NCBI GenBank assembly: GCA_963709585.1
Contig: CAVPXI010000007.1
Location: 1 to 64,000, forward strand
Direction: 5' to 3'
DNA length: 64,000 nucleotides
DNA from: Candidatus Dormiibacterota bacterium
Lineage (GTDB): Bacteria > Chloroflexota > Dormibacteria > Aeolococcales > Aeolococcaceae
Both the position numbers and the translations under genes were made by a program. Position 1 is the stretch's first letter. Each line of letters starts with the position of its first letter. Positions 14,248 to 53,886 of the stretch are shown here, in pieces. The notes under the pieces were generated by a model, which saw only the letters and a program-made list of their open reading frames with translations, made no database searches and was not told the origin of the DNA.

Positions 14248-17200
14248 CTAGTGAAACGTTGCAATGGCCCCGGTCCACGCCAGGGCTGAACTGAGGGTGC
14301 CCGCGAAGCTCTGCGCTCCAGTCGCACTCACGATCAGCCATGCCGCTTCCTCGCCGCTCGAGAAACCTGTCGTCCCCAACTTTGCGGTCGATTGCTCCGG
14401 CGGCGTCGTCGTGTAGCCGGTGGTTGTGCCCGTGAGCGTCAGCGCGCCATTCCAGCCGATGTCCGCAATCACGATCTCGTTGGACTGGGTTGTAGTCGGA
14501 GTGGTTCCCGTCGTTGCCGCCGCGGTGGATCCGATCGCGGTAGCCGACTTGTCGAACGGAGTAGTCGGCGATGCTCCGGCGATGTCAAAGACAGTCATTG
14601 ACAGGGAGGCGACACCACTCGTCGTGGCCGTGACACTCGTGACACTTCCCGAGTTGGCAACGTAGTAGATAGCCTCGAACGCCTGACCGTTGAGCGTGCT
14701 CGTGGCCTGTGACCACACGTTGTGTCCGGTTGAGTTGTCGCTAACCCCAGTCACCGCAAACAAAGGGCTGCTCCGACCCTTGATCGTGACCACGAGAAGA
14801 TCGCCGCTCCCGGTGGCTGTCGCGGTCGTTGCCGTCAAAGTTGTGGCCTGCGTCGTATTGAGGGAGCCAAAGGTCTCGACCACCTTCAGGCTTGCGCTGC
14901 TTGCCACCAGCGAGAAGTTCTGATTCGTTGTTGCACCTGGCGTCACGATGACGGGAGCGGTCTGCGGCGTGTAGCCGGTCGCGGAAACGGTCACAGAATA
15001 GGTTCCCTCGGCAAGACCGCTGAGTGTGTAGGTGCCGTTGCTCGCCGTGGCGGTGCCGGTGCACGCGGGCGTACCGGTGCAGGCGACATTCGCACCGCTG
15101 ATCGGCGTGATTCCGTCGGACTTTGTAACCGTGCCGGTGATCTGCCCGGGCAGCGGCCCCAGCGCGAAGTTCTGCGTCGGGGTCCCACCCGGCCCCACGT
15201 TGATCGGGTTGACCGTCTCCGGTGAGTAGCCGTTGGCTGACGCGGTGACCTGGTACGCCCCTTCGGTGAGGCCGCTGAGGGTGTAGGTACCGTCGCCTGC
15301 CGTGACAGTGCTGGTGCACGGCATTGTCCCGGTGCAGGCAACCGTCGCACCGGCAATTGCGGCACTGGTCAGCGAGTCCGTCACCTTCCCGCTGATCGTC
15401 CCGGGATTCGGCACCAGGCTGAAGCTCTCTGGCGTCGAGTTCCCGGTCGTCACCACCACACCGGAGTTCGTCCCCGTCGCGTACCCGGTCTGCGTCGCCG
15501 TGATCACGTACGTTCCGGGCGCAACCGTGAGCGTGTAGGTACCGTCAGACGCGGTCGTGGTGCTGGTGCAGCTGGGCGTGCCGCTGCAGGCGACCGTCGC
15601 ACCGCCGATTGCAGCGCTGGTGATCGAGTCCGTCACAGAGCCGGTGATCGTCCCAGGGCCCGTGATGAGCTGGAAGTCCTGGGTTGGGGATCCGCCCGGC
15701 CCCACCACGACCGTGAACGTCTCAGACGCGAAGCCGGCCTTCGATGCCGTGATCTGGTAGCTCCCCTCGGTGAGATTGCTCAGGGTGTAGGTACCGTCAA
15801 CCGCGGTCGTTGCGGGGGTGCAGGTCAGGGTGCCGGTGCAGGCGACAGTCGCACTGGGAATCGGAGAACTGGCCGAGTCCCTCACTGTCCCGCTGATCGT
15901 CCCGGGATTCGGCACCAGGCTGAAGTTCTCCGGCGTCGAGTTCCCGGCTGTGACCACCACGCCCGATGTCGACCCCGTCGTGTACCCGGTCTGGGTCGCC
16001 GTGATGTCGTACGTCCCGGGCGCAACCGTGAGCGTATAGGTGCCGTCAGACGCGGTCGTGGTGCCGGTGCAGGTGGGCGTGCCGCTGCAGGCGACCGCCA
16101 CGCCGCCGATCGCAGCGCTGGTGACCGAGTCCGTCACCTTGCCCGTGATCGTGCCCGTGCTCTGGCCGAAAGCCGGCTTGATGTCACCGAAACTCGCGTT
16201 CGACGAATTGCCGAGCAGCGTTACGCCGTATGCCTCTTCAATGCCTCTCAGCGTCGCGTAGTGATCGCCTGAAGCATTGAAGGCGCCATGGGAATTGGCG
16301 CTGATTACCACGGTGGCGACCCGACCGCCATTCCCAAAAGTGCCACCGGACTTATCGGCATTAACACTCTCGTCCCAGGTGAGGATGACGATGCCTCCGC
16401 TGGTGTACCAGCTTGACGAAAGGACTGTTGGCAGATTCTGGCTCAGCCAGGTATCACCGTTCACCAGTGGGTTGCTCCCACACGGTGAGCCTGCGGTGTG
16501 CATGTCGTCGCACACGTTCGGAGAGATCCAGACGAAGTCGGGCGGGCTACCGCTGTTGAGATCGGTTGAAATCTGTGACAGCGTGTAGGGGACAACACCA
16601 TTGCCGCCCGAGCAGAGTGACGAATAGTCGCTGAAAAATACGAATGGATTATGGTCGGACAAGTAGAGCGGTGCAGTGCCCCGGTAGCAGTTCGAAGGCA
16701 TCGACTCCATGTAGGCCTTCCAACTGATACCGGCTGTGTTCAACTCGTCGACGAGCGTCGGCGTGGCATAAGGTGGCGTGGTGTTCACCGTATAGCCCTG
16801 ATTGAATCCGGAGACCAGGTCGAGATAGTCACCAGGGCTGTTGTGTTGATTCCCGTACCACGCGGTCGTCGACGCGTATTTGCTGGCCAGACTATTGATG
16901 TATGGCGCACTGGCGTTACCGATAACGTACGGGCTGCCCTGAGCACTGCTGTACGCCTTGTTCTCGTCGACGATCAACATGATGTGTGGCGCGGGCGGGG
17001 GCGCGGTCACGGTGAATGAGGTCGACGACGTCGCGGTGCCGCCGGGCGTTGTAACCGTGATCGGGCCGGTCGTGGCTCCGCTGGGCACCGAGGTGCTGAT
17101 GTGCGAGTCGTCAGTCACCGTGTAGGTGGCGGTGGTTCCGCTGAATTCGACAACCGAGGTGCCGGTGAATCCAGTGCCGGTGATCGTCACCGGCGTGCTC

Positions 17201-18399
17201 CTTGGTCCGCTGGGCGGGGCGAAACCGGTGATCGTGGGCGTGGGTGAGGCATCCACCGTGAACGAGGCCGATGATGTTGCAGTCCCCGCAGGCGTGGTGA
17301 CTGAGATCGTCCCGGAGCCCGCGCCGGCGGGTACCGTCGTACTGATCTGGATGTCGGAGTTCACCGTGTACACGGCGTTGGTTCCAAAGAACTTGACGAA
17401 GGTGGCCCCGGTGAACCCGGCCCCATTGATCGTCACCGGCATGCCGATCGGTCCATGACTCGGGCTGAAACCGGAGATCGTCGGCGGTGAGGACGACCCG
17501 GCTTTGAAGGTGGCGATCGTGCCGGTCCAGGCCACGCTGGACGCGCTCAGCGTGGCCGAATAGCTCTGCACACCTGTGGCCGTCAAAGCCAGCCATGCCG
17601 CCGCTTCGCCGGCCCCGCTGCCGCTTACAGTCGCCGTTTGTGTGGGAATGTTGGTGCTGTAGCCGGGGGTTTGTCCACTCATTGTCACGATGCCGCTGCT
17701 GTTCCAACCGAGGTCGCTGATTGCGATCTCGCTGGCCTGGGTCGTGGTGGGAGTCGTGCCGGTCGTGGATGGCTGGGCGCTGCCCCCCTGCCCGTGAACC
17801 ACATCGAGCGGCGATGATGGTGCGGCGCCGGTCACCTCCAGGACTGTGAATGCGATGGCCGAGGTCGACGCTGATGTCCCACCCACCGTGACCTTGATCG
17901 ATTGAGTTGTCAGAAGAGCGGCCGCATTCGCCGCGTACCAGATCTCTCCGTCGGCCTGGGCTCCCTGCACGATGCTGGTGGCGAGAGCCCAGTGGTTCGA
18001 GGCCGAATCGGTGACCCCGGTGACAGGAGCCCGGTTGGTGGCATTCCGAGTGCGGATCACAGCGACGAGGAGGTCGCCTGCTGTCGTAGCAGCGGGTGGC
18101 GACGCCGAGAGCGTGGCGCTACCAGATGTGTTGTGCGCTCCGAACGACTGGGCTACCCCGAGCGCGCTCGCGAAAGCCGGCCGTCCGAGCGGGAGCATCC
18201 CCGCGAGCACAACAGCCCCCACCACGAGGAAGATCGAGCTGGCTGCAGCTCTCCGGCTGAGGCGAAGACCACGTCTCGGGCGGGGCTCGTGTCGAGGACT
18301 CGACGGTCCCGGTTTTATCCAGGTTGTCTCACGGTGCCAGCCCTCGACGTCACGACTCTGTCCATCGACGTGCCCGAGAGGATGCCAGCGGTCGGTCAT
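14248..18399 (-). CDS. secreted multidomain protein: unknown domain + 2 IPT/TIG + phosphoesterase + 5 carboxypeptidase-regulatory-like repeats + unknown domain (start uncertain, ORF open to 18444)
   Basis: PTISGFSP..GP.G..VTI.G.GF (IPT/TIG); HIMLIVDEN, HNPF, DDMH, LTWDE, DHYATLRGIEE. Confidence 0.88.
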   Translation of the reverse strand: MTDRWHPLGHVDGQSRDVEGWHRETTWIKPGPSSPRHEPRPRRGLRLSRRAAASSIFLVVGAVVLAGMLPLGRPAFASALGVAQSFGAHNTSGSATLSASPPAATTAGDLLVAVIRTRNATNRAPVTGVTDSASNHWALATSIVQGAQADGEIWYAANAAALLTTQSIKVTVGGTSASTSAIAFTVLEVTGAAPSSPLDVVHGQGGSAQPSTTGTTPTTTQASEIAISDLGWNSSGIVTMSGQTPGYSTNIPTQTATVSGSGAGEAAAWLALTATGVQSYSATLSASSVAWTGTIATFKAGSSSPPTISGFSPSHGPIGMPVTINGAGFTGATFVKFFGTNAVYTVNSDIQISTTVPAGAGSGTISVTTPAGTATSSASFTVDASPTPTITGFAPPSGPRSTPVTITGTGFTGTSVVEFSGTTATYTVTDDSHISTSVPSGATTGPITVTTPGGTATSSTSFTVTAPPPAPHIMLIVDENKAYSSAQGSPYVIGNASAPYINSLASKYASTTAWYGNQHNSPGDYLDLVSGFNQGYTVNTTPPYATPTLVDELNTAGISWKAYMESMPSNCYRGTAPLYLSDHNPFVFFSDYSSLCSGGNGVVPYTLSQISTDLNSGSPPDFVWISPNVCDDMHTAGSPCGSNPLVNGDTWLSQNLPTVLSSSWYTSGGIVILTWDESVNADKSGGTFGNGGRVATVVISANSHGAFNASGDHYATLRGIEEAYGVTLLGNSSNASFGDIKPAFGQSTGTITGKVTDSVTSAAIGGVAVACSGTPTCTGTTTASDGTYTLTVAPGTYDITATQTGYTTGSTSGVVVTAGNSTPENFSLVPNPGTISGTVRDSASSPIPSATVACTGTLTCTPATTAVDGTYTLSNLTEGSYQITASKAGFASETFTVVVGPGGSPTQDFQLITGPGTITGSVTDSITSAAIGGATVACSGTPSCTSTTTASDGTYTLTVAPGTYVITATQTGYATGTNSGVVVTTGNSTPESFSLVPNPGTISGKVTDSLTSAAIAGATVACTGTMPCTSTVTAGDGTYTLSGLTEGAYQVTASANGYSPETVNPINVGPGGTPTQNFALGPLPGQITGTVTKSDGITPISGANVACTGTPACTGTATASNGTYTLSGLAEGTYSVTVSATGYTPQTAPVIVTPGATTNQNFSLVASSASLKVVETFGSLNTTQATTLTATTATATGSGDLLVVTIKGRSSPLFAVTGVSDNSTGHNVWSQATSTLNGQAFEAIYYVANSGSVTSVTATTSGVASLSMTVFDIAGASPTTPFDKSATAIGSTAAATTGTTPTTTQSNEIVIADIGWNGALTLTGTTTGYTTTPPEQSTAKLGTTGFSSGEEAAWLIVSATGAQSFAGTLSSALAWTGAIATFH

Positions 18400-18572
18400 C
18401 CGAGATCGCCCACCAGCCCGACAAAGCACACGCCCTGCAGCCAAGGTCCGCCCACGTCGCCCCCTTTTGCGCCCGCTACCCTCGCGTAGGCGCTCGCGCC
18501 TTTAGAATCGGCCGTCCTGACTAGCCACGCTCATCTTAAAGGATCGGGTCGGCCCCCCGTGCGACTTGAGAC

Positions 18573-18641: not shown

Positions 18642-21542
18642 CTACTGGAACCAGCCGGCCACATCGAGGATCGCGTTGATGTCGCCCGCCGCGTTGTAGA
18701 GGTCGATGTTGCCGCTCGAGCCTCCTGTGGTGGCCAGCCCCACGATGGCGAGGTTGGCGATCGTGATACCGGCGGCGGGATTCAGGTCGGAGGCGAGCGG
18801 CCGGGTGGTCACGTCGCCGGGGTAGAGCGTCAAATACGTCGCGGCGCTCCCCCCGACGCCCGTGAGGTTGGCCACCATGGCAACCGGGGGTGTCGATCCG
18901 CCGGTGGCCGGCACCACCAGGACGCCTGCGACCGGGACCGGTTCGGTCGCGCCCGCGGTCAGCGCCTGACCCTGGCACTCAGTGCCCGACCCGGCCCGGG
19001 TGTCGCAGATGCGCGTGGGTGACACCGCATAGAAGAGTGCCCCGGTACTGGTCTCGCTCCCATTGCCGAACCAGCCGTCGATGTCGATGATGATGTTGGC
19101 GCTGCCCGTGCTGTTGTAGACGCACACGTCCTGATGCGAACCAAGCGAGGCGATCACGCGATTGGGCAGCGACGAGCCGGGTGGGAGGTTGATGTTGGAG
19201 ACTGACGGAGCGCCCGTCGGGCACAGACCCGTGCGCGGATCCGGCGGCTCCACCGAGAGGTAGGTCGTAGCGCTGCCCTGGGTGCCGGTGAGATTGAAGA
19301 CCGCGGCCGCGGCGGTGCCGTCTGATGGGATGGCCGGACCGTTGCCTCCCGGAGGAAGGCCGGAAAGCACCACGTCACGCCAGGTGTTTGCGCGGATCGG
19401 GTTGTTGACCGCGCCAGCGCAGACGGTGCCCTGCCCGGCCCGCGTGTCGCAGATGCGCAGCGGTCGCATGGGATGAAAGGCACCGGCGACAGGGGAAGCG
19501 CCCGGGGGAGCGAAGTACCCCTGGATGTCGACGATGACATCAGCGCGCCCCGCAGCATTGAAGACGCTCATCGCACCACCCGTGCCCAGTTGCACCACGA
19601 CGAGATTGGCCTGGGCGTTCTGCCCATTGAGGTTGATGTTCGATGCGAGCGGGACCGTGGCGCCGGCGGGAAAGGCGGTGACGTACGTGGCGCTGGTGCT
19701 GTCGTTGATCGCCGTGACGTTGACGGCGACAGCCTCAGCGTTGTTCGGCACGACCTGTCCCAGCGCGTTTCGTTCGCCGGTGACCTGGACTGTGAGCGTG
19801 CCCTTGGCTCCAAGCGTCTTGCCGGTGCATTGGTTGTGCGGCAGGAGCGCTCGAGTATCGCAGACACGAAAGGCCGTCATCGCCGTGTATGCACCCGGCG
19901 CTACGTACACGTAGTGGTCGGCGGCGCTGGCCGCAGTGGTCCCTCCTGGGGTCGTGACCGTGACGTCGACGGTCCCAGGAGCAGTCGATTGCGGGGTGTA
20001 GGCGGTGATCTCCGTCGGGCTGGTCACCGCAAAGCATCCTCCCGGCGATCCCGGACATGGGTAGGGATTGGTTGCCGGCACATCGATCGTGCCGAAGTGC
20101 ACATCGGATGTGGTGACGCCGCTCCCGTTGAAGTTCGTCCCGCTGAGCGTGACCAGCTCGCCTCCCTCCTGTGCTCCCTCGGTTGGAGCAACACCCGTCA
20201 CCGACGGCAGCGGAGGCGGTACGTACACGTAGTGGTCGGCGGCACCGGTCGCAGTGGTCCCTCCTGGGGTCGTGACCGTGACGTCGACGGTGCCAGGAGC
20301 AGGCGATCGCGGGGTGTAGGCGGTGATCTCCGTCGGGCTGGTCACCGCAAAGCATCCTCCGGGCGATCCCGGACATGGGTAGGCATTGGTTGGCGGGACA
20401 TCGATCGTGCCGAAGTGCAGATCGGATGTGGTGAAGCCGCTCCCGTTGAAATGCGTGCCGCTGACGGTCACCAGCTCGCCGCCCTCCTGTGGTCCCTGCG
20501 TCGGAGCGACACCCGTCACCGACGGCGGCGGCGCCGAAACCGGCACACCGAACGCCGGGGTGATGTCGCCGAAGGCTGGATCGGCGGAGTTGCCCAGCAG
20601 GTCAACGACATACGCCTCCTCGATTCCTCGCAGCGTCGCGTAGTGATCTCCCGATGTGGCGAATGGATGCTGCGAATTCGCGCTGATCACCAGGGTGGGG
20701 ACGTGACCGCCGATGCCGTACGACCCACCGGACGTGTCGCCATCGGCGCTCTCGTCCCAGGTGATGATGATGATGCCGCCGCTCGTGTACCAGTTCGACG
20801 ACATCACCTGCGGCAGATTGGTCTGCAACCAGCTGTCACCGGCAGTGACCAGCTGATCGCTGGTGTCGGTAGCGCACGGCGATGCTGCACTGGTGTCGCC
20901 GTGCATGTCATTGCAGTCATTGGGGACGACGAAGGCGAAGGCAGGTGCGTTGGCTCCGTCGAGCGCGGCCGCAATCCCGCTCGATCCCGGATAGGGCACG
21001 ACTCCCTCGGAGCCGGCATTGGCGCTGCTGCACCAACCCCCGCCCCCGGCCGAGTAATTCGTGAAATAGTGGAACGGATTGTGAACCGCGTCGTACTGGC
21101 CGTCGCTCGTCGAGTTCACCGAGGAGCATGGCGCCGGCATGCTCTCCATGTAGCCCTGCCAGGGGATGCCGGCGGTGTGCAGCTCATCGACCAGGGTCGT
21201 GGACGAGTACGGCTTGCCGATGGGCACACCCAGATCCGACCCGTCGAGCAGATCGAGATAGTCATGAGGGCTGTTGTGCTGCACGGCGTACCAATTGGTC
21301 GCGGAGGTGTAGGTGCCGGCGAGACTGTTGATGTATGGCGCGCTGGGGTTGTTGATGATGTACGGGGTGCCCTGAGCCGAGCCATAGGCCGCGTTCTCCT
21401 CGACGATGAGCATGATGTGCGGCGGGCTCGGCGGCGAAGCGTGGGCCGGTACCGGCACGACGGCGAACGCGATCGACCCTAGGATGCCGAGCACTCCGGC
21501 GCCGCTGCGCGCGCGCCGACGCTTCCCTGCCCTCTCGTTCAT
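18642..21542 (-). CDS. secreted phosphoesterase + 2 IPT/TIG + three 'PxRICDTR' repeats
   Basis: GAGGA before ATG 21542, signal peptide ...PAHA; HIMLIVEEN, HNPF, NDMHG, ITWDE, DHYATLRGIEE. Confidence 0.88.
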   Translation of the reverse strand: MNERAGKRRRARSGAGVLGILGSIAFAVVPVPAHASPPSPPHIMLIVEENAAYGSAQGTPYIINNPSAPYINSLAGTYTSATNWYAVQHNSPHDYLDLLDGSDLGVPIGKPYSSTTLVDELHTAGIPWQGYMESMPAPCSSVNSTSDGQYDAVHNPFHYFTNYSAGGGGWCSSANAGSEGVVPYPGSSGIAAALDGANAPAFAFVVPNDCNDMHGDTSAASPCATDTSDQLVTAGDSWLQTNLPQVMSSNWYTSGGIIIITWDESADGDTSGGSYGIGGHVPTLVISANSQHPFATSGDHYATLRGIEEAYVVDLLGNSADPAFGDITPAFGVPVSAPPPSVTGVAPTQGPQEGGELVTVSGTHFNGSGFTTSDLHFGTIDVPPTNAYPCPGSPGGCFAVTSPTEITAYTPRSPAPGTVDVTVTTPGGTTATGAADHYVYVPPPLPSVTGVAPTEGAQEGGELVTLSGTNFNGSGVTTSDVHFGTIDVPATNPYPCPGSPGGCFAVTSPTEITAYTPQSTAPGTVDVTVTTPGGTTAASAADHYVYVAPGAYTAMTAFRVCDTRALLPHNQCTGKTLGAKGTLTVQVTGERNALGQVVPNNAEAVAVNVTAINDSTSATYVTAFPAGATVPLASNINLNGQNAQANLVVVQLGTGGAMSVFNAAGRADVIVDIQGYFAPPGASPVAGAFHPMRPLRICDTRAGQGTVCAGAVNNPIRANTWRDVVLSGLPPGGNGPAIPSDGTAAAAVFNLTGTQGSATTYLSVEPPDPRTGLCPTGAPSVSNINLPPGSSLPNRVIASLGSHQDVCVYNSTGSANIIIDIDGWFGNGSETSTGALFYAVSPTRICDTRAGSGTECQGQALTAGATEPVPVAGVLVVPATGGSTPPVAMVANLTGVGGSAATYLTLYPGDVTTRPLASDLNPAAGITIANLAIVGLATTGGSSGNIDLYNAAGDINAILDVAGWFQ
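19902..20526. repeat. intragenic tandem duplication, 318-bp period (two IPT/TIG domains)
   Basis: TACGTACACGTAGTGGTCGGCGGC starts at both 19902 and 20220, with high identity continuing for about 305 bp. Confidence 0.9.
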
Positions 21543-21748
21543 GCGCTTCCTCAGGTCGTAGCCCCTCCTGCGGCGATGACCAACGTTAGCATGGGTTCGC
21601 AGGTCTGAACGCATCGTCGTCGCTGCGTTGGAGATGCAAATGCGCGTCCGCGCAAGACCTGGAAGCGTTTTGGGCAGTGCGGCTACGACGCGGTAACGGC
21701 ACGGTTGCCCTCGCGTCTCGGATGAAGCGGTCGGCGTAGGCTCCGCCC

Positions 21749-21830
21749 CGTCGCAAAACGCACTCCCGCTGCGAGGCGGGTTCGCAAAGCCACGGGACTC
21801 CGAATACCGGAGCCGGCCGGGTTGCCGATG
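21749..21830 (+). ncRNA. c-di-GMP-I (GEMM-I)-type riboswitch aptamer, C20 variant, copy 1
   Basis: P1 CGTCG/CGATG; GCAC-TCCCGCT-GCGA-GGCGGG-TT-CGCAAAGC-CACGGG...CCGGGTTGCCGA matches the GEMM-I layout; TAGGCT -10 at 21737-21742. Confidence 0.85.
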
Positions 21831-21879
21831 CTGTTTCGTCGAGGTCTAGCACGCGGTGGCTCCGGCATGGAGGAACCAC

Positions 21880-23235
21880 ATGCACATCCGATCGAGACGA
21901 CATGACCCTGGCCGGCGTTCGCGTCGTTTGACTGCGAGGCGCGGACAGTTCATCGCCTGGTCGATCGGTATCGCTGTCGCTGTCGCCGCGTGCGGACCAT
22001 CGCCGGCCACAACGCGCGGCCAGGCGGCCAATGCACCGGTCTCCGGCTCCGGTCCCATGGCCCCGCCCGGCTCGAGTCCGGAGCGTAGAGGATCGAGCCG
22101 GACCGCTTCTGGCCAGCTCGACAAGTCCACCACGCTCGGTCAGGGACCCGCGTCGAGTCCGGGGTCGACGTCCGCGCCCGGCGGCGCGAGCACGGCCACA
22201 GCGACGGCGGCACCCACGCCCAGGTCCACGCCTACGCCCAGGCCAGCGCCGGCGGGCACCCGCAACAAGTACCTCTGGCCCTTCGCCAGCACCAGCATCT
22301 GGAACATGCCGATCGGCCGGGGCGCCGCCTACGTGCCCGCCCATATCGCCTTGCCCACCCTCCAGACCCTGACCGCGGACCAGGACATCATCGTCATGGA
22401 TCCGAGCGCGCCGATGGTGCTCCTCGCCCACAGCGGCGCCGGCTGGAGTGGCGGCAACCGCTGCACCGTCAGCGGCCCGACGCTGACCGCGGTGCCCATC
22501 CCCGCCACCTTCACCGTCTCCAGCAATGGCCACAACGACGCTTTGGCGGTGCTGATGCCCGACGGGCAGACGGTCATCCAGGCGCAGCCGTTCGCGCGCT
22601 GCACCCCGGCGGGCCCGGCCACCGCGCTGGCACTCGCGCCCGCCGACAACCTCTATACCAACGGCATCCTCGGCGCCCACGGCGGCTCCGGGCTCAGCTC
22701 CCTGGGCGGCACCCTCCGCTTGAACGAGCTCGTCCCCGGCGGGCAGATCCGTCACGCGCTCAAGGTCAACCTCGACGCGGCCGCCGATCTCTATCCGAGC
22801 CCGGGGTATCGCTGGCCCGCGATCCGGCATGACTCCTGCGCGCCCAGCTGCTACGGGGGCACGGTGCCCGCTCTGGAGATGGGCTCGCTGCTCGCCATCC
22901 CGACCAGCGTCAACATCAACGCGCTCGGCCTCCAGACCGCTCCCGCGCGGATGCTCGCGTGGACCCTGCAGAACTACGGCGCCTACGTCGCCGACAACAC
23001 CGCCCGGAGCGTGTTCTCGATCGAGACCGAGGACAGCCCCTCCGGCTCGGTGGTCAACCAGTTCCAGCAGACCTGGGGCTATGCCTTCCAGGCTCCCGCC
23101 GGGAGCGGCACCCCCTGGTCGCACGACATCAACCTGATCCTCGCCAACCTCAGCGTAGTCGCCAACAACGGACCCTCTACCATCGGCGGCGGTGGCTCCC
23201 CTCTGCAGCCACTCGCACCACCGATCGGCAACTGA
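21880..23235 (+). CDS. uncharacterised lipoprotein, copy A
   Basis: GGAGG then ATG 21880; lipobox VAAC; S/P/T linker; globular domain WPFASTSIWNMPIG...GAHGGSGLSSLGGTLR...LQNYGAYV. Confidence 0.85.
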   Translation: MHIRSRRHDPGRRSRRLTARRGQFIAWSIGIAVAVAACGPSPATTRGQAANAPVSGSGPMAPPGSSPERRGSSRTASGQLDKSTTLGQGPASSPGSTSAPGGASTATATAAPTPRSTPTPRPAPAGTRNKYLWPFASTSIWNMPIGRGAAYVPAHIALPTLQTLTADQDIIVMDPSAPMVLLAHSGAGWSGGNRCTVSGPTLTAVPIPATFTVSSNGHNDALAVLMPDGQTVIQAQPFARCTPAGPATALALAPADNLYTNGILGAHGGSGLSSLGGTLRLNELVPGGQIRHALKVNLDAAADLYPSPGYRWPAIRHDSCAPSCYGGTVPALEMGSLLAIPTSVNINALGLQTAPARMLAWTLQNYGAYVADNTARSVFSIETEDSPSGSVVNQFQQTWGYAFQAPAGSGTPWSHDINLILANLSVVANNGPSTIGGGGSPLQPLAPPIGN

Positions 23236-23242
23236 TCACCGC
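22246..23242 (+). repeat. left arm of ~1 kb inverted repeat
   Basis: Reverse complement of 24726-25722; about 8 mismatches seen by eye. Confidence 0.95.
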
Positions 23243-23375
23243 TTGTTTCGCCTTCGTTGTCGCACGCGCAACTGGCCTGCGCATGGAGCACGTCGGTGAT
23301 TTGGTGCTGGGGCAACGCCCCGGTGACGACGCGGTTGCGTGAGCGAAGCCGGCGCCGCGCTGGACATAGGCTCGC

Positions 23376-23461
23376 GGTGTCGCAAAACGCACCCCCGCCG
23401 CAAGGCGGGTTCGCAAAGCTACGGGGCTCCGAAAACCGGAGCCGGCCGGGTTGCCGATGCC
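23376..23461 (+). ncRNA. c-di-GMP-I (GEMM-I)-type riboswitch aptamer, C20 variant, copy 2
   Basis: P1 GGTGTCG/CGATGCC; GCAC-CCCCGCC-GCAA-GGCGGG-TT-CGCAAAGC-TACGGG...CCGGGTTGCCGA; TAGGCT -10 at 23367-23372; differences from copy 1 mostly fall in loops or keep pairing. Confidence 0.87.
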
Positions 23462-23511
23462 TTCTCGATGACGTGTATGGCACACGGTGACTCCCGGCAT
23501 GGAGGAACCGA

Positions 23512-24686
23512 ATGGATTTCGAATCGAGACGCAACGAGGGTGATCGACGTTCGCGACCAGGTGCCGTCATCGCGAAACACGTGCGAGCCCCCTGTCCTCG
23601 CTCGGAATCATGGTGCTCCTTGCTGCATGCGCCCAGGGAGCGGCGACCACCGCCGCGATCCCGCTGACCTCATCCGGCGCAGGGCACAGCGCATTCGGCC
23701 ACCCAACGACCCGATCCGGGACCGGCCGACCCAGCCCCACGTCGTCAGGACACACTTCGACACCAAGCGCAACTCACCCACCGGCTCCAGCGATCGACGT
23801 GAACACCGTATCGCCGTTGAAGCCGTCGCCGCGGCCTTCGGCGACACCACTGCCGACCCCGGGCCCGACACCATCACCGCCGCCGCACTCCGCCACGTCG
23901 CACGTGCTCGTGATCATGGAGGAGAACAAGGGCTACAAGGCGACGCTCGGCTCTTGCGGCGCGGACCCGTATTGGTGCTCGCTTGCCGCCAAGTACGCGA
24001 GCGACACGTCATGGTTCGGTGTCGCCCATCCCAGCGAGCCCAACTACGTCGCGTTTGAGTCGGGTGGCATCCAGGGCTGCGTCGGCGATACCTCGTGTGC
24101 CGCGAACTCCGTGTCAGCGACCGACCTCGGCGGTCAGCTCACCGCGAAGGGCGTGCCATGGGTCGGTTGGATGGAATCGATGCCGTCGCCCTGCTATACC
24201 GGTGTCGCGAGCAACGGGTATTTCCTCAAGCACTCGTTTGGTGGCTTCTTCAAGGACGAGTACGGGGCGTGCCACATCCTCCCGTACCCGGGTGTGTCGT
24301 CGGCAGTGAACACACTCGACGGTGCGAGTGCGCCGGACTTCGTGTGGATCACCCCGAACGTGACCGACGACATGCACGACGGCACCGTGCCGCAGGGTGA
24401 CGCGTGGCTCAAAACGAATCTCGCGCCGATCCTCGCCTCAACGTGGTTCACCGGCTTCAACTCGACCGTTGTCGTCACGATGGATGAGAACGACGCGCAG
24501 TCGAGCCCCGGCGGCGGCCAGGTCCCGATGGTGATCATCTCGTCGCTCGCCGCCGGTAGAGGCGCCGTCGCGACCCCGGGCAACCACTACGGACTGCTGC
24601 GCTCCATCGAGGAGGTCTACCGTCTACCCCTGCTCGGCGCCGCCGCCCTTTCCGTCAACGGGGACGTGCGCTCCTTGTTCGGCTGA
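23512..24686 (+). CDS. phosphoesterase lipoprotein; probable frameshift at C5 23588-23592
   Basis: GGAGG + ATG 23512 (MDFESRRNEGDRRSR, similar to MHIRSRRHDPGRRSR of the 21880 gene) is out of frame with ORF 23610; one more C joins them. Lipobox LAAC, IMEENKGY, HPSEPNY, DDMHD, TMDE, NHYGLLRSIEE. Confidence 0.85.
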
Positions 24687-26406: not shown

Positions 26407-28233
26407 TTGAGCGACCAGGGTCGTCTGCGTCGGCGTCGGCTGCATGGTTCGCCGGCGGTGGTCAGAGCCCGAAAGCGCAAGCGCCCGCCACTGGCCATCT
26501 ACACGCGTCCCCGTACCCCTGCGCTGCGGCGGCCACGCGGTGTGGTGGTGCGCGTCGACTTCGGGTTGCTCGCGCTCGTCGGGGGACTTTCCCTCGCTGC
26601 GCTACCGGGGTTGCACCTCTCCACGGCGTCGGCAGGCCTCGGCGTCGTACAGTCGTTTGGGGGGGCAACCAACGCAGTCACGAGCTCCCTCTCGGTCTCA
26701 CCGAATACGGATACAGCCCAAGGTGATCTGCTGGTTGCCACCATCAAGAGCCGCGACCTTTCCGCGTTCGAGACGGTCGCCGGGGTCACCGATTCGGCTG
26801 GAAACACATGGTCGCTGGTCGACAGCGTCACACAGGGACATCAAGCCGATGAGGAGATCTGGTACGCGCCCGACGCGGCGGCCGTCGGCGCCGGGGGCGG
26901 CGTCACCGTGACATTGGGCGGGAGCGCCGCGATTGCGATGACGGTTCTGGAGATAGCCGGTGCCTCCAGCACGCCGCTCCACGGAGTGGCCGACGCGAGT
27001 AACCACGACACCGCGGCCTCCACCGATGAGGCGCCTGCGAGCCCACAGGACATCGTCATCGCAGACGTGGGCTGGAATGCGAACGTCACCCCGGGGGGGC
27101 AAACCCCGAGCTTCACCCCCACTCCTGTCGAGCAGGCAACGGCCGCAGGCACCATGACGGGAGAGCAGGCAGCATGGGAGATCGTCAACAGCGGGCAAAC
27201 CGTGAGCTACGACGCCACCCTGAGCGCCCCCGTGGCGTGGGCGGCAGCCATAGCAACCTTCTCTGCCGTTGCGGTCGCGCCGCCAACGCCGACCCCGACG
27301 GGAACACCAACTCCAACAACGACGCCAACGTCGACCCCAACACCCACGCCAACCTCCACACCCACCTCCACGCCGACCCCCTCGCCAAGCCCGACAGCCA
27401 CTGTTTCGCCGACGCCATCACCCTCGAGCGCCCCTGCAACGCGGCACGTGATGGTGATCATGGAAGAGAACAAGGGATACGCAGCGACACTCGGATCGTG
27501 CGGGAGCGATCCCTACCTGTGTTCCCTCGCCTCTCAATACGCGAGCTACACGGGTTGGTCTGGCATCGGTCATCCGTCACTGCCCAACTACCTCGCCTTC
27601 GACAGCGGGAGCACTCAAGGGTGTGCCTCCAACTCCTGCCCGGGACCGTACGCAGCGACTGATCTCGGAGGCGAACTGTCCACGGCCGGTATCCCGTGGA
27701 CCGCGTACATGGAATCGATGCCGTCGGCCTGCTCCACGGTGGATTCGTCCAACGGCCTCTACGTCAAGAGACACGATCCGTTCATCTATTTCAATGACGT
27801 GCTCAACAACGGCTGTGCCAACAACGTCGTCCCATACCCGGGCGGTGCCGGGCTGATCTCCGACCTGAGCGGCGCTGCTGCACCGCAGTTCGTTTGGGTC
27901 ACCCCGAACGTGGATGACGACATGCACGACGGAACCGTCACGCAGGGCGACACGTGGTTGCAGACAAATCTTGCTCCAGTGTTGTCCTCCAGTTGGTTCA
28001 CCAAGTTCGACAGCACCGTGATCGTGACCATGGATGAGAATGACGCCCAGTCGTCGCCCGCGGGCGGGCAGGTGCCCATGGTGGTCATCTCCAGCGACGC
28101 CGCGGGACAGGGCGCGATATCGGCCCCCGGAAATCACTACGGGACACTGCGCGCCATCGAAGAGGCATTTGGGCTCGGGTACCTCGGCGCGTCTGCCGAC
28201 CCCTCGAACGGCGACCCGCTCGGCTCCTTCTAG
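26407..28233 (+). CDS. secreted protein: unknown domain + PT linker + phosphoesterase (start uncertain)
   Basis: Hydrophobic signal ...ASA; QGDLLVATIK..EIWY domain; (PT)n linker; IMEENKGY, HPSLPNY, HDPF, DDMHD, TMDE. Confidence 0.88.
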   Translation: MSDQGRLRRRRLHGSPAVVRARKRKRPPLAIYTRPRTPALRRPRGVVVRVDFGLLALVGGLSLAALPGLHLSTASAGLGVVQSFGGATNAVTSSLSVSPNTDTAQGDLLVATIKSRDLSAFETVAGVTDSAGNTWSLVDSVTQGHQADEEIWYAPDAAAVGAGGGVTVTLGGSAAIAMTVLEIAGASSTPLHGVADASNHDTAASTDEAPASPQDIVIADVGWNANVTPGGQTPSFTPTPVEQATAAGTMTGEQAAWEIVNSGQTVSYDATLSAPVAWAAAIATFSAVAVAPPTPTPTGTPTPTTTPTSTPTPTPTSTPTSTPTPSPSPTATVSPTPSPSSAPATRHVMVIMEENKGYAATLGSCGSDPYLCSLASQYASYTGWSGIGHPSLPNYLAFDSGSTQGCASNSCPGPYAATDLGGELSTAGIPWTAYMESMPSACSTVDSSNGLYVKRHDPFIYFNDVLNNGCANNVVPYPGGAGLISDLSGAAAPQFVWVTPNVDDDMHDGTVTQGDTWLQTNLAPVLSSSWFTKFDSTVIVTMDENDAQSSPAGGQVPMVVISSDAAGQGAISAPGNHYGTLRAIEEAFGLGYLGASADPSNGDPLGSF

Positions 28234-51209: not shown

Positions 51210-53886
51210 GTGACCGCCAAGCAGCGCGCGGACGATGCCAGGGTCGACCCGGAGAACCGGCCCGCGGCGAGTGCCGGCAGCGTCGCGCCCATCTGGGTCC
51301 TGAATGTCGTCATGACGCTGGTGGTGGCCATCGTCTACGTGCTGGCGGTCGCGCCGTTGCACCAGGAGGGCGGAACGACGCTCCTTTCGATCGCTCTGTT
51401 GGTGGTGGCGTTTGCCGCCGGCGAGTGGTGGCGGGTGTACATCCACTTCCGTCGCGAGTCTCAGTCGTTCTCGCTGAGCGAGATCCCGCTGGTGATCGGC
51501 GTGTTCGTGCTCGCGGGCAATCCAGGGCAGCTGGTGCTCGCGCGGGTGCTCGGCGCCGCGATCGGGCTGGGTGTGCTCCGCCGCCAGGAGCCGATGAAGC
51601 TGATCTTCAATCTCGCGAGCTTCGCGCTCGAGACTGAGACGGTCACGCTCCTCGTCCATCACATCTCCGGGACCAATCCCACCAGCCCGCCCGTGTGGCT
51701 GTGGCTGCTGCTTTTCATGTCGATCGCTTCACTGGTCGGATTCGGGCTGACAACCGTCGCGATCTCGCTCGCCGCGGGATGGCAGTCACACCGGCAGTGG
51801 TTCCAGCCGATCGTGATCCTGCTGATCGGCGGATTCGCCAACTCCAGCCTCGGGTTGGTTGTCGTCGCGCTGTATAACGCCGACCCCAGGACACTATGGC
51901 TGCTGCTCACCCCGCTCGCGGCGATCGGCGCTTCGTACGTTCTCTACACGCGCGAACACGAGAAGAACCAGCGTCTCAAGAACCTTTACGAATCGAGCGA
52001 CATGCTCCAACGCGCCAGCTCGGACGGCGCGGCGGTTCCCGAATTGCTCGACCATCTCTGCAAGGTCTTCCGGGCTGAAGTCGCCGTAGTGTCGTTGCTG
52101 CCGGCGGCGACGGGAACCAACTCGTGGCGCACGATCAGCACGTCGCGCGGCGCCCGCGACAATGTCGACACCCCGCTGGACGTTGAGCACCTGGAGCGGC
52201 TGCTGCCGCTTCTCCATGAGACCAAGTCCGCGGCCGTCGACCCCGGGAGTCAGGTGGTTCAGCGAGGTCTCATCGCCACGCCTTCCACGTCGAACCGCGA
52301 GCTGCGCGAGTGGTTGAGCGAGCAGGGGTTCAGGGATGCGATGGCGACGCTCCTGCAGGGCGAAGGCATGCTCCTCGGGACCTTGATCGTCGCCAACCGG
52401 TTGACCGACGGGAGCCCGTTCGACAGCGACGATCTCCATCACTTCGATGCCTCGGCGGCGCAGATCACGGTTGCCGTCGAGAACACGCGCCTCGGCCACC
52501 GCCTTCGCCGGCAGGCGTTTCACGACACCCTCACCGGCCTCGCCAACCGCGCGCTCTTCATGGACCGGCTCGAGCACGCACTCACGCGCCGCGAGCGCCA
52601 CGACGAGTCATTGGGGGTGCTGTTCGTCGACCTCGACGACTTCAAGGAGATCAACGACAGCCTCGGACACATGGCCGGCGACGAGCTGCTCACCAAGGTG
52701 GCGGATCGCCTGAAGCTGGTGCTCCGCGCGTCCGACACTCCGGCTCGCTTCGGCGGCGACGAGTTCGCGATCCTCGTCGAGGAAACCGCGGATCCCGAGG
52801 ACATCATGCGGGTCGCCGAGCGCGTGATGTCCGTCTTCACGCCACGATTCGTTGTCGCCGGGCGCGAAGTCACGATCAGCGCCTCTGTGGGAGTCGCCGT
52901 GACCGCGTCTCGCGACGTCACCGCGGAGGAGCTCGTGGGTCGCGCGGACGTCGCGATGTATCGCGGCAAGCTCAAGGGGAAGGACACCTACGAGGTCTTC
53001 GAACCGGGCATGCAGGACGTCGTCGCGCGTCGCCTCGAGGTACGCACCGACCTGGAGCGCGCCATCGATCGACACGAGCTCGTGGTCCTGTACCAGCCGA
53101 TCGTGGACATCACCAACAGCACCCCGGTCGGCGTCGAAGCGCTGGTTCGCTGGAAGCATCCTCGCTGGGGCATGGTCGTGCCCTCGGAATTCATCGGCAT
53201 CGCCGAAGAGACCGGCATGATCCGCGAGCTCGGCCTGCACGTGCTCGAGGAGGCGTGCAGGCAGTTGCAGGCGTGGCAGACCGAGATCGATGAGCCCGCG
53301 TTCACGGTGAGCGTCAACGTTTCTCGCCGGCAGTTGCGTGACCCGACCTTCGTCAGCGATGTTTCGCGCATCCTGACCAAGGCGGGACTTCCCGCCCTCG
53401 CATCTCGCGCTCGAGATCACCGAGAGCTTCATGGTCGACGATCCCGAGAGCGCGCGCGTGTGCCTGCGTGAGTTGAAGGCGCTCGGTGTTCGGATCTCGA
53501 TGGACGACTTCGGCACCGGGTATTCATCGCTGGCATCGCTCCAGGACCTGCCGCTCGACATCCTCAAGATCGACAAGCTGTTCATCGACCATGTCGCCGA
53601 GGATCCGCGCCGGACGGCGTTCGCCCAGGCGATCATCCGGATGGGGAAGACGCTCGGGCTCGGGTTGATCGCCGAGGGCGTGGAGACCGCCGCTCAGGCC
53701 GAGCGGCTCCAGAGCCTCGGCTGCCGGCTCGCCCAGGGCTTCTACTTCTCGAGGCCGGTGCCCGCCGAAGAGATCCTGCGAATGCTGCGCACGTCACATG
53801 CGATGCGCGTCGCCGGAGGCAGATGGCCCGAGGCCGAACCGGCGGAGCGGCGTGCACGGCTCCGGGTGCTCGAGCAGAGCGCTTAG
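51210..53886 (+). CDS. membrane GAF-GGDEF-EAL diguanylate cyclase/phosphodiesterase, frameshift near 53392
   Basis: TM region, [31 protein letters not shown]-site, [17 protein letters not shown]; deleting one C restores [14 protein letters not shown]. Confidence 0.9.

Follow-up and report, generated by a model that had tools for sequence, protein, structure and literature searches.

Riboswitches of the GEMM-I fold (c-di-GMP-I, Rfam family RF01051, with Vibrio cholerae Vc2 as the reference) have a best-known specificity switch at position 20 (Vc2 numbering), where a G specifies cyclic di-GMP (c-di-GMP) and an A specifies 3',3'-cGAMP (cyclic GMP-AMP). Rfam clan CL00126 also holds the families c-di-GMP-I-GGC (RF03167) and c-di-GMP-I-UAU, natural variants of the same fold that are defined by the triplet of bases at positions 20, 47 and 92; the UAU in the latter name presumably stands for these three bases. 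None of the variant families of the clan is for C20. According to the available text of PMC6140456, N7 and O6 of the ligand base Gα receive the imino and amino protons of G20, the A20:Aα pair is made by N6-H···N7 and N1···H-N6 contacts, and protonated A20 also binds c-di-GMP, which limits selectivity, many A20 RNAs being bispecific. The accessible part of PMC3764141 gives G20, A25, G42, C44, A47 and C92 among the highly conserved nucleotides. Position 20 is discussed only as G (c-di-GMP) or A (cGAMP) in the available portions of PMC6140456, PMC6456294, PMC9481103 and PMC7266159, and those of PMC9049102 hold simulations of the G20A and C92U structures only. Full-text literature searches, with the main GEMM-I variant surveys lying outside their reach, gave no description of C at position 20. 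The stretch analysed here (the window, 64,000 nucleotides, positions 1 to 64,000 of contig CAVPXI010000007.1 in assembly GCA_963709585.1 of a Candidatus Dormiibacterota bacterium) contains two riboswitches with this base. They belong to a widespread natural pocket variant of the GEMM-I fold, designated CAC after C20, A47 and C92.

The window pair are genuine GEMM-I riboswitches of the c-di-GMP-I fold with a C at the ligand-reading position. Both match RF01051 on the + strand over model positions 1-87 of 87, the first at 21749-21829 with 51.0 bits (E = 4.8e-07) and the second at 23378-23458 with 57.9 bits (E = 1e-08; E-values for the 64-kb window), well placed above the gathering score of 35 bits. 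They are the only RF01051 matches across the source assembly of 3.52 Mb (24 contigs, 88.8% complete). Model position 11, the equivalent of Vc2 G20, is an unpaired consensus G immediately 5' of invariant G-C and C-G pairs, and in the Rfam alignment it reads C in both aptamers, which upholds the reading of C, not G or A, in an earlier note made from the sequence alone. The motif G14-CAAAA-C20-G21-C22 lies at 21753-21761 and 23382-23390, and A47 (the A after CGC) and C92 (the first C of the 3' GCC) are retained in both copies. The base placements of that note, including the TT before C44 and the GCGA and GCAA tetraloops, were all found correct when the sequence was read again. The internal loop departs from the family consensus, with TT (21781-82 and 23410-11) at the place of GA, C44 being kept, and with ACU (riboswitch 1) or ACC (riboswitch 2) at the place of AAA on the 5' side. 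The complete loop is ACU/UUC in the first riboswitch and ACC/UUC in the second, and the conserved A25 and G42 are replaced. In the Rfam alignment, P3 of both aptamers is without the CUAA and uAu segments of the model.

The described variants of the fold do not accommodate the pair. GEMM-Ib is marked by A20, and no A20 aptamer occurs in this genome; the RF03167 consensus AAAGGC...CGCGAA corresponds to G20 and G47, whereas the window aptamers have C20 and A47 and find their best clan match in RF01051; c-di-GMP-I-UAU, if we read its name correctly, has U20 and U92, against C20 and C92 here. Both aptamers are spanned by contigs from two public DNA runs, and none of the 40 differences listed, out of 90, falls inside them. 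The leaders of riboswitches 1 and 2 are paralogues, with 77% identity across the 181-182 bases of aptamer and leader. The occurrence of the same state in two diverged copies had been put forward as an argument against a sequencing error; an error is indeed excluded, although this particular argument is weaker than it sounds, since the two leaders are paralogous.

Position 20 was tabulated by taxon, as the earlier note had proposed. The genus set comprises 42 genomes including this one (same-genus records carry the lineage Candidatus Dormibacteraeota or Dormibacteria), of which 21 have a GEMM-I match. Among the 28 matches extracted, one of them below the gathering score, C is the commonest base at position 20 (14), followed by A (12) and G (2). 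The genus C20 copies share a common leader, here called type 2, with two A20 copies, giving 16 sequences. For both type-2 A20 copies the nearest relative is a C20 copy, with 92.3% and 92.9% identity over approximately 181 nt of aptamer and leader, and positions 19-20 read UA in the A20 copies versus AC in the C20 copies. Several other A20 types of the genus differ in leader and downstream gene. The phylum was sampled by a draw of 151 genomes, 31 of which have GEMM-I matches, all fetched. In the 67 matches outside this genome (one below the gathering score), G prevails at position 20, with 59 cases against 7 of A and a single C; two of the A20 aptamers were read by eye, one past an alignment gap (locus L210) and one being the middle aptamer of locus L187, which was missed by the covariance model R1 described below. 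As only one of the 67 phylum matches has C, C20 is rare in this unselected sample.

A scan across all species, with one genome per species, shows that the variant is nevertheless widely spread. The scan pattern, A-C-G-C-A at positions 19-23 together with two conserved blocks, gave at least 121 stretches. To these the covariance model R1 was applied, built from an alignment (A1) of 58 aptamers that consists of the 28 from the genus and 30 others. R1 detects aptamers in 79 of the 121 stretches listed; the remaining 42 fit the pattern by chance. Aptamers that combine C20, A47 and C92 are present at at least 60 loci (60 of the 121 listed), 7 in the same genus and 53 outside it. As titled in the genome records, these 53 loci belong to Anaerolineales and other Chloroflexota, Acidimicrobiales, Solirubrobacterales, Acidobacteriota, Planctomycetota, Omnitrophota, Armatimonadota, Gemmatimonadota, Bipolaricaulota, Fermentibacteria, Desulfuromonadales, Thermomonas and Bacillota. 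At the remaining 19 of the 79 loci the pattern ACGCA lies upstream of an aptamer with G20, A20 or U20 or, at five loci, R1 reports a neighbouring U20 aptamer only. R1 misses some aptamers that are detected by Rfam, namely the C20 member of C>U pairs (for instance L079) and the middle aptamer of L187. When 20 of the 60 C20 loci were checked with Rfam, all 20 scored above a clan gathering score, with RF01051 as the best family for 16 and RF03167 for 4; the latter four, from other phyla, mismatch both defining G's of the RF03167 consensus.

Apart from position 20 the ligand pocket is intact in these aptamers. A47 and C92 are kept in 76 of 76 C20 aptamers tallied (14 + 49 + 13, some same-genus aptamers being counted in two alignments). 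Compensatory changes occur in 12 of the 18 consensus pairs among the 58 aptamers of A1, and in 10 of the 14 pairs predicted from a C20-only alignment of 54 aptamers (54 of 59, three near-duplicates and two 5'-truncated alignments being left out). In the latter alignment the canonical AAA/GAC internal loop is found in 30 aptamers, and a pyrimidine-rich loop of the window type in 11, comprising the Dormibacteria rows and loci L097, L131 and L169.

Some C20 aptamers are combined with aptamers that carry another base at position 20. The C20 aptamer is solitary at 41 of the 60 listed loci, lies 3' of an A20 aptamer at 10 and 3' of a G20 aptamer at 6, and is part of the arrays A>G>C and A>G>G>C at one locus each; at one locus it precedes a G20 aptamer. 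For loci L139-L179 the flanks extend only ~300 nt, so that some arrays are possibly incomplete. The ten A>C arrays, in which C20 adjoins the A20 aptamer, occur in Anaerolineales. Two Anaerolineales genomes of one genus (G084 with locus L187 and G108 with L201) contain three abutting aptamers with ruvB downstream, an intrinsic terminator and a TATAAT box lying in between. Position 20 reads A/A/G in the L187 array (by eye) and G/A/C in that of L201, and the last aptamers of these orthologous arrays, G20 in one and C20 in the other, have 82% identity. In both arrays the 3' tail of one aptamer doubles as the 5' strand of the next. Aptamers with U20, A47 and C92 are present at L079, L126, L130, L148 and L172, in Aegiribacteria/Fermentibacteria records and one record titled Syntrophaceae. 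At L079 the U20 aptamer lies directly 3' of a C20 aptamer, as two Rfam hits; at the other four loci the C20 neighbour is putative, being at most a match to the scan pattern. With these U20 aptamers beside those with G20, A20 and C20, all four bases are found naturally at position 20.

The earlier note had also called for a survey of the cyclases of the genome. The survey gave 29 GGDEF matches and one DAC, and no Pfam match to the SMODS cyclase domain. A DncV-like Pfam model was silent in all control genomes, which renders its silence in this genome uninformative. The GGDEF residue directly after the GH..G motif is one which we take to contact the base of the nucleotide. It was examined in 28 of the matches, a short fragment (L240) being left out; of the 27 domains readable by motif, 26 carry Asp and one, a degenerate domain, carries Asn, with no Ser or Thr in any. 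A Ser at this specificity residue marks the Hypr enzymes that make cGAMP. In another genome, with both A20 and C20 aptamers (G028), 20 of the 21 GGDEF domains read have Asp and one has Asn, with 5 unreadable by motif; in G108, which has the G>A>C array, 8 of 9 have Asp and one has Asn, with 7 unreadable. The Asn domain L274 of the latter genome (G108:C1:965229-965687) retains an intact GGDEF motif. One GGDEF gene of the Asp type, with the motif GGDEF, lies inside the window (52515-52985, + strand, in an open frame of 780 aa).

The earlier note left open a retuned affinity or a different cyclic dinucleotide ligand. The indirect evidence leans towards a retuned or relaxed recognition of c-di-GMP, because G20/C20 and A20/C20 swaps are observed in orthologous aptamers and only Asp-type GGDEF domains were found in the three genomes. 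We therefore propose, with a probability of about one half, that the window riboswitches may still sense c-di-GMP with altered recognition, and thereby control the translation of two secreted lipoprotein genes. Each riboswitch would act from the 5' leader of one of these genes, on c-di-GMP supplied by the many ordinary GGDEF cyclases of the genome. As in Vc2, C92 would pair with one guanine of the ligand and A47 would stack between the two ligand bases, while C20, with its N4/N3 edge, would recognise the second guanine at its Hoogsteen edge. Cytosine should offer at N4-H/N3 the arrangement of donor and acceptor that adenine has at N6-H/N1, and therefore C20 could read adenine directly, or guanine when protonated. 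For c-di-GMP, C20 would thus probably need protonation, like A20, or make one hydrogen bond only, and the outcome would be a binding that is weaker or less selective than that by G20.

The leaders indicate how binding might be coupled to translation. Both contain CGGUG(G/A)CUCC(C)GGCAUGGAGGAACC followed by AUG, with CUCC complementary to and paired with the GGAG of the Shine-Dalgarno (SD) sequence, and this SD hairpin is conserved across the 16 type-2 leaders. In the consensus fold of these leaders the aptamer's 3' half (GCCGGGUUGCCG, with C92 in it) pairs with the CUCC-bearing strand; in platform 1 the sequence GGUGGCUCCGGC is able to form this alternative pairing with the 3' half of the aptamer. 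In platform 2 UCUCGAU (23463-23469) is also complementary to AUCGAGA (23522-23528), bridging the ribosome-binding site. A terminator scan found no intrinsic terminator 3' of either aptamer on the + strand. In the proposed mechanism ligand binding would fix the 3' half of the aptamer and free the strand CGGUG(A/G)CUCC(C)GGC, which would then close the hairpin over the SD sequence GGAGG, so that translation falls; it is from this release of the anti-SD strand by a ligand-locked aptamer that we infer the direction of the switch. Covariation in the alternative helix is weak, with changes on both sides in only 2 of 39 pairs. The helix excludes the aptamer, and enforcing it costs 0-8.5 kcal/mol over the minimum free energy in the 14 leaders in which both strands were located; in riboswitch 2 it leaves the SD open.

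Several observations weigh against this proposal. The SD is mostly paired with or without an enforced aptamer-like fold, with an unpaired probability of ~0.2-0.4 in most of the 16 leaders, the enforced fold being the minimum-free-energy fold of the aptamer alone and not the true GEMM-I fold. The two states thus do not appear clearly separated in thermodynamic terms, and the switching logic, like its direction, is a matter of interpretation. The smaller size of C, compared with G or A, requires the pocket to adjust. G20 is avoided by 26 of the 28 genus aptamers, which is odd for plain c-di-GMP sensing. In 18 of the 19 R1-resolved arrays that mix C20 with G20 or A20, C20 is the 3'-most member, and such an ordered mixture of G20, A20 and C20 could reflect different ligands rather than affinities alone. 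Finally, cGAMP synthases are recognisable in the cyclase survey only by the Asp-to-Ser signature and by Pfam SMODS, in an assembly that is 88.8% complete and with 8000 of its bases outside the survey.

A further view is that CAC is a distinct and widespread specificity class for a dinucleotide other than c-di-GMP, be it cGAMP through a C:A pair or another guanine-containing molecule, with the abutting G20/A20/C20/U20 arrays as multi-signal gates; this view we regard as doubtful. Its cGAMP form, in which C20 reads adenine and the CAC aptamers, as a pyrimidine counterpart of GEMM-Ib, sense 3',3'-cGAMP or are bispecific for it and c-di-GMP, is unlikely. The A20/C20 swaps in near-identical orthologous leaders, the nearly exclusive use of A20 and C20 in the genus (26/28) and the position of C20 beside A20 in the ten A>C arrays of Anaerolineales agree with it, as does the A20:Aα pair, whose donor-acceptor pattern, as described in the available text of PMC6140456, is one that C can offer. 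However, the readable GGDEF domains of this genome, G028 and G108 include no Ser/Thr Hypr type, this genome has no SMODS match, G20 and C20 swap as well at an orthologous aptamer, and if an A20 aptamer and the C20 aptamer behind it had one ligand in common, the arrays would make sense only as a means of sharpening the dose response. Quite unlikely is a new specificity for some other guanine-containing ligand, such as a purine-pyrimidine cyclic dinucleotide or a linear one like pGpG, with the mixed G20/A20/C20/U20 arrays acting as multi-input gates. Here the recurrence of CAC across many lineages under strict retention of A47 and C92, the ordered arrays with C20 last (18/19), the direct abutment of C20 and U20 in Aegiribacteria/Fermentibacteria records (two Rfam hits at L079) and the practice of Rfam to keep other triplet variants of the fold as separate families of unknown ligand (RF03167) have to be set against the lack of an evident dedicated synthase in this genome, the resemblance of the downstream genes to ordinary GEMM-I targets, and the orthologous G/C and A/C swaps, which argue for interchangeability.

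Loss of ligand binding, by which the leaders would be constitutive structures or be controlled by a protein, is highly improbable. The internal loop does deviate at A25 and G42, both conserved according to the accessible part of PMC3764141, in addition to C20, the SD hairpin is stable by itself, and the conserved palindrome upstream suggests a protein regulator. Yet the 54 C20 aptamers preserve A47, C92 and C44 as well as every helix, with compensatory changes, 30 of them keep the canonical loop, and the variant persists in many lineages. There is a negligible probability that the finding is an artefact, whether of sequencing, of alignment or of taking an intrinsic terminator on the minus strand for an aptamer. 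At both sites the P1a hairpin, as its reverse complement together with GTTTT, is called by the terminator scan, but these minus-strand sites lie upstream, not downstream, of the minus-strand ORF (open reading frame) 18642-21614. This explanation was rejected in view of the full-length + strand Rfam matches and of the presence of C20 in 12 further aptamers of the genus and at at least 53 loci of other lineages, by which the claim of a natural variant is borne out. Retuned recognition of c-di-GMP thus remains the preferred reading.

The features of the two leaders and their genes are collected in the table below. A palindrome-like motif, GGTAACGGCNCGGTTGCC, lies ~40-57 nt upstream of 16 of 16 type-2 riboswitch leaders in the genus, and may be the operator of a transcription factor that works together with the riboswitch. 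At a -10-like place all 16 leaders have the hexamer TAGGCT, TAGCCT or TAGTGT, a putative promoter element; a consensus promoter scan gave no sigma-70 site. Contigs of a soil metatranscriptome library (X19) cover window positions 21765-21802, which is part of the aptamer, and 22431-23151 in gene 1, and the aptamer contig extends upstream into the sequence of a relative's A20-type aptamer. These contigs give a weak hint at transcription of such leaders, DNA carry-over being possible and transcription not proven. Small word shares in the RNA runs X18-X20 were also considered as a sign of habitat or expression and were rejected as evidence of either.

Table. Features of the two C20 riboswitch leaders and downstream genes in the window (SD, Shine-Dalgarno sequence)
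Feature	Position	Strand	Description
Palindrome 1	21692..21709	+	GGTAACGGCACGGTTGCC; imperfect, conserved; motif or close variant upstream of 16/16 genus type-2 leaders; possible operator
-10-like hexamer 1	21737..21742	+	TAGGCT; 7 nt upstream of P1 of riboswitch 1
Riboswitch 1 aptamer	21749..21830	+	GEMM-I fold; P1 CGUCG/CGAUG (pairing read from the sequence); tetraloop GCGA; C20/A47/C92 at 21759/21786/21825
Expression platform 1	21831..21879	+	anti-SD CUCC 21860-21863 and SD GGAGG 21869-21873 form a conserved sequestering hairpin (predicted folds)
Gene 1	21880..23235	+	predicted lipoprotein, 451 aa; lipobox AVAAC, Pro/Ser/Thr-rich linker, 327-aa C-terminal domain (from the translation)
Palindrome-like motif, copy 2	23322..23339	+	GGTGACGACGCGGTTGCG; from the same comparison of type-2 leaders
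-10-like hexamer 2	23367..23372	+	TAGGCT; 5 nt upstream of the riboswitch 2 aptamer
Riboswitch 2 aptamer	23378..23458	+	GEMM-I fold; tetraloop GCAA; C20/A47/C92 at 23388/23415/23454; P1 extendable to 23376-23461 (predicted fold)
Expression platform 2	23459..23511	+	anti-SD CUCC 23491-23494 and SD GGAGG 23501-23505 form a hairpin (predicted folds)
Gene 2	23512..24686	+	PF04185 phosphoesterase-family lipoprotein (phospholipase C / acid phosphatase type); Pfam E = 2e-21

The C-terminal domain of the gene 1 product (window 22252-23232) has no Pfam or NCBIfam match. Of 8000 candidates scored, 1833 are homologous to it at E ≤ 1e-5, and in some of these it is joined to lectin, PA14, T9SS or PF04185 domains. 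An AlphaFold2 (AF2) model of the domain, built with 46 of the listed homologues, has a pLDDT (predicted local distance difference test) of 96.7. A Foldseek search of the model against the Protein Data Bank (PDB) gave no match at E ≤ 0.001, and VIA-align gave Z-scores of ~5, below the trust level of the tool, to MltA lytic transglycosylases and other double-psi beta-barrel proteins. The domain is a candidate for an undescribed family of glycan-active enzymes. The frame of gene 2 is broken in the window in comparison with an intact orthologue of 387 aa (P0003), a base being missing in the C run 23588-23592, such that the N-terminal ~25 residues lie in one frame and the lipobox and PF04185 domain in another. 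Contigs of the DNA runs X1 and X3 have an extra C behind 23587 (C6 versus C5 in the window), which restores the frame, and the frameshift is probably a homopolymer assembly error or a strain variant. Four PF04185 ORFs surround the riboswitches, at 14248-18444 (-), 18642-21614 (-), 23610-24686 (+) and 26407-28233 (+); among their products are a 1398-aa protein with five CarboxypepD_reg repeats and another with IPT/TIG domains.

For C20 aptamers of other phyla the genes downstream were surveyed by their first ORF, at 33 of 36 loci; the other three, all from Dormibacteria, had ORFs that were short or open. Their Pfam domains comprise RuvB (6), PilM (2), CAP (2) and PAS (2), with subtilase, trypsin, GDSL lipase, ice-binding-like, HAMP and others occurring once each. 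The gene context of C20 aptamers elsewhere, with PilM, proteases, CAP, GDSL lipase, PAS and HAMP, is typical of GEMM-I. RuvB is an unusual target for this riboswitch class; the RuvB ORFs begin 91-302 nt past the aptamer, with a terminator in between in both arrays read closely (L187 and L201).

Across many phyla the specificity position of the fold retains a third base, C, in an otherwise intact pocket, and some records show U there. Because of this conservation, and because orthologous aptamers alternate between G, A and C, nature offers a ready-made mutagenesis series. If C20 only retunes affinity, the variant would show the extent to which c-di-GMP thresholds are tuned via the pocket, and ligand calls from position 20 alone would be unsafe; if C20 changes the ligand, it would define a new signalling-RNA class and a new biosensor scaffold. 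Secreted hydrolase-like lipoproteins of uncultured Dormibacteria are also placed under predicted cyclic-dinucleotide control.

In comparison with known systems, the window aptamers share with c-di-GMP-I RNAs of RF01051 the helix P1, the P1a/P2 hairpin with its GNRA-type loop, P3, A47, C92 and C44, as well as their location in the 5' leaders of genes for secreted or surface proteins. They differ from RF01051 and Vc2 by having C20 instead of G20, the loop ACY/UUC instead of AAA/GAC, and a P3 that lacks CUAA and uAu. From the GEMM-Ib c-AMP-GMP riboswitch of Geobacter (Gs1761) they are distinguished by a pyrimidine at the place of adenine, by targets that are lipoprotein hydrolases and not cytochromes or pili, and by a genome in which no Hypr GGDEF (among the readable domains) or SMODS cyclase was found. 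With GEMM-Ib they nevertheless have in common the same fold and a single change at position 20 to a base with an amino donor and ring-nitrogen acceptor edge, and within the genus it is A20 copies that are the nearest relatives of C20 copies.

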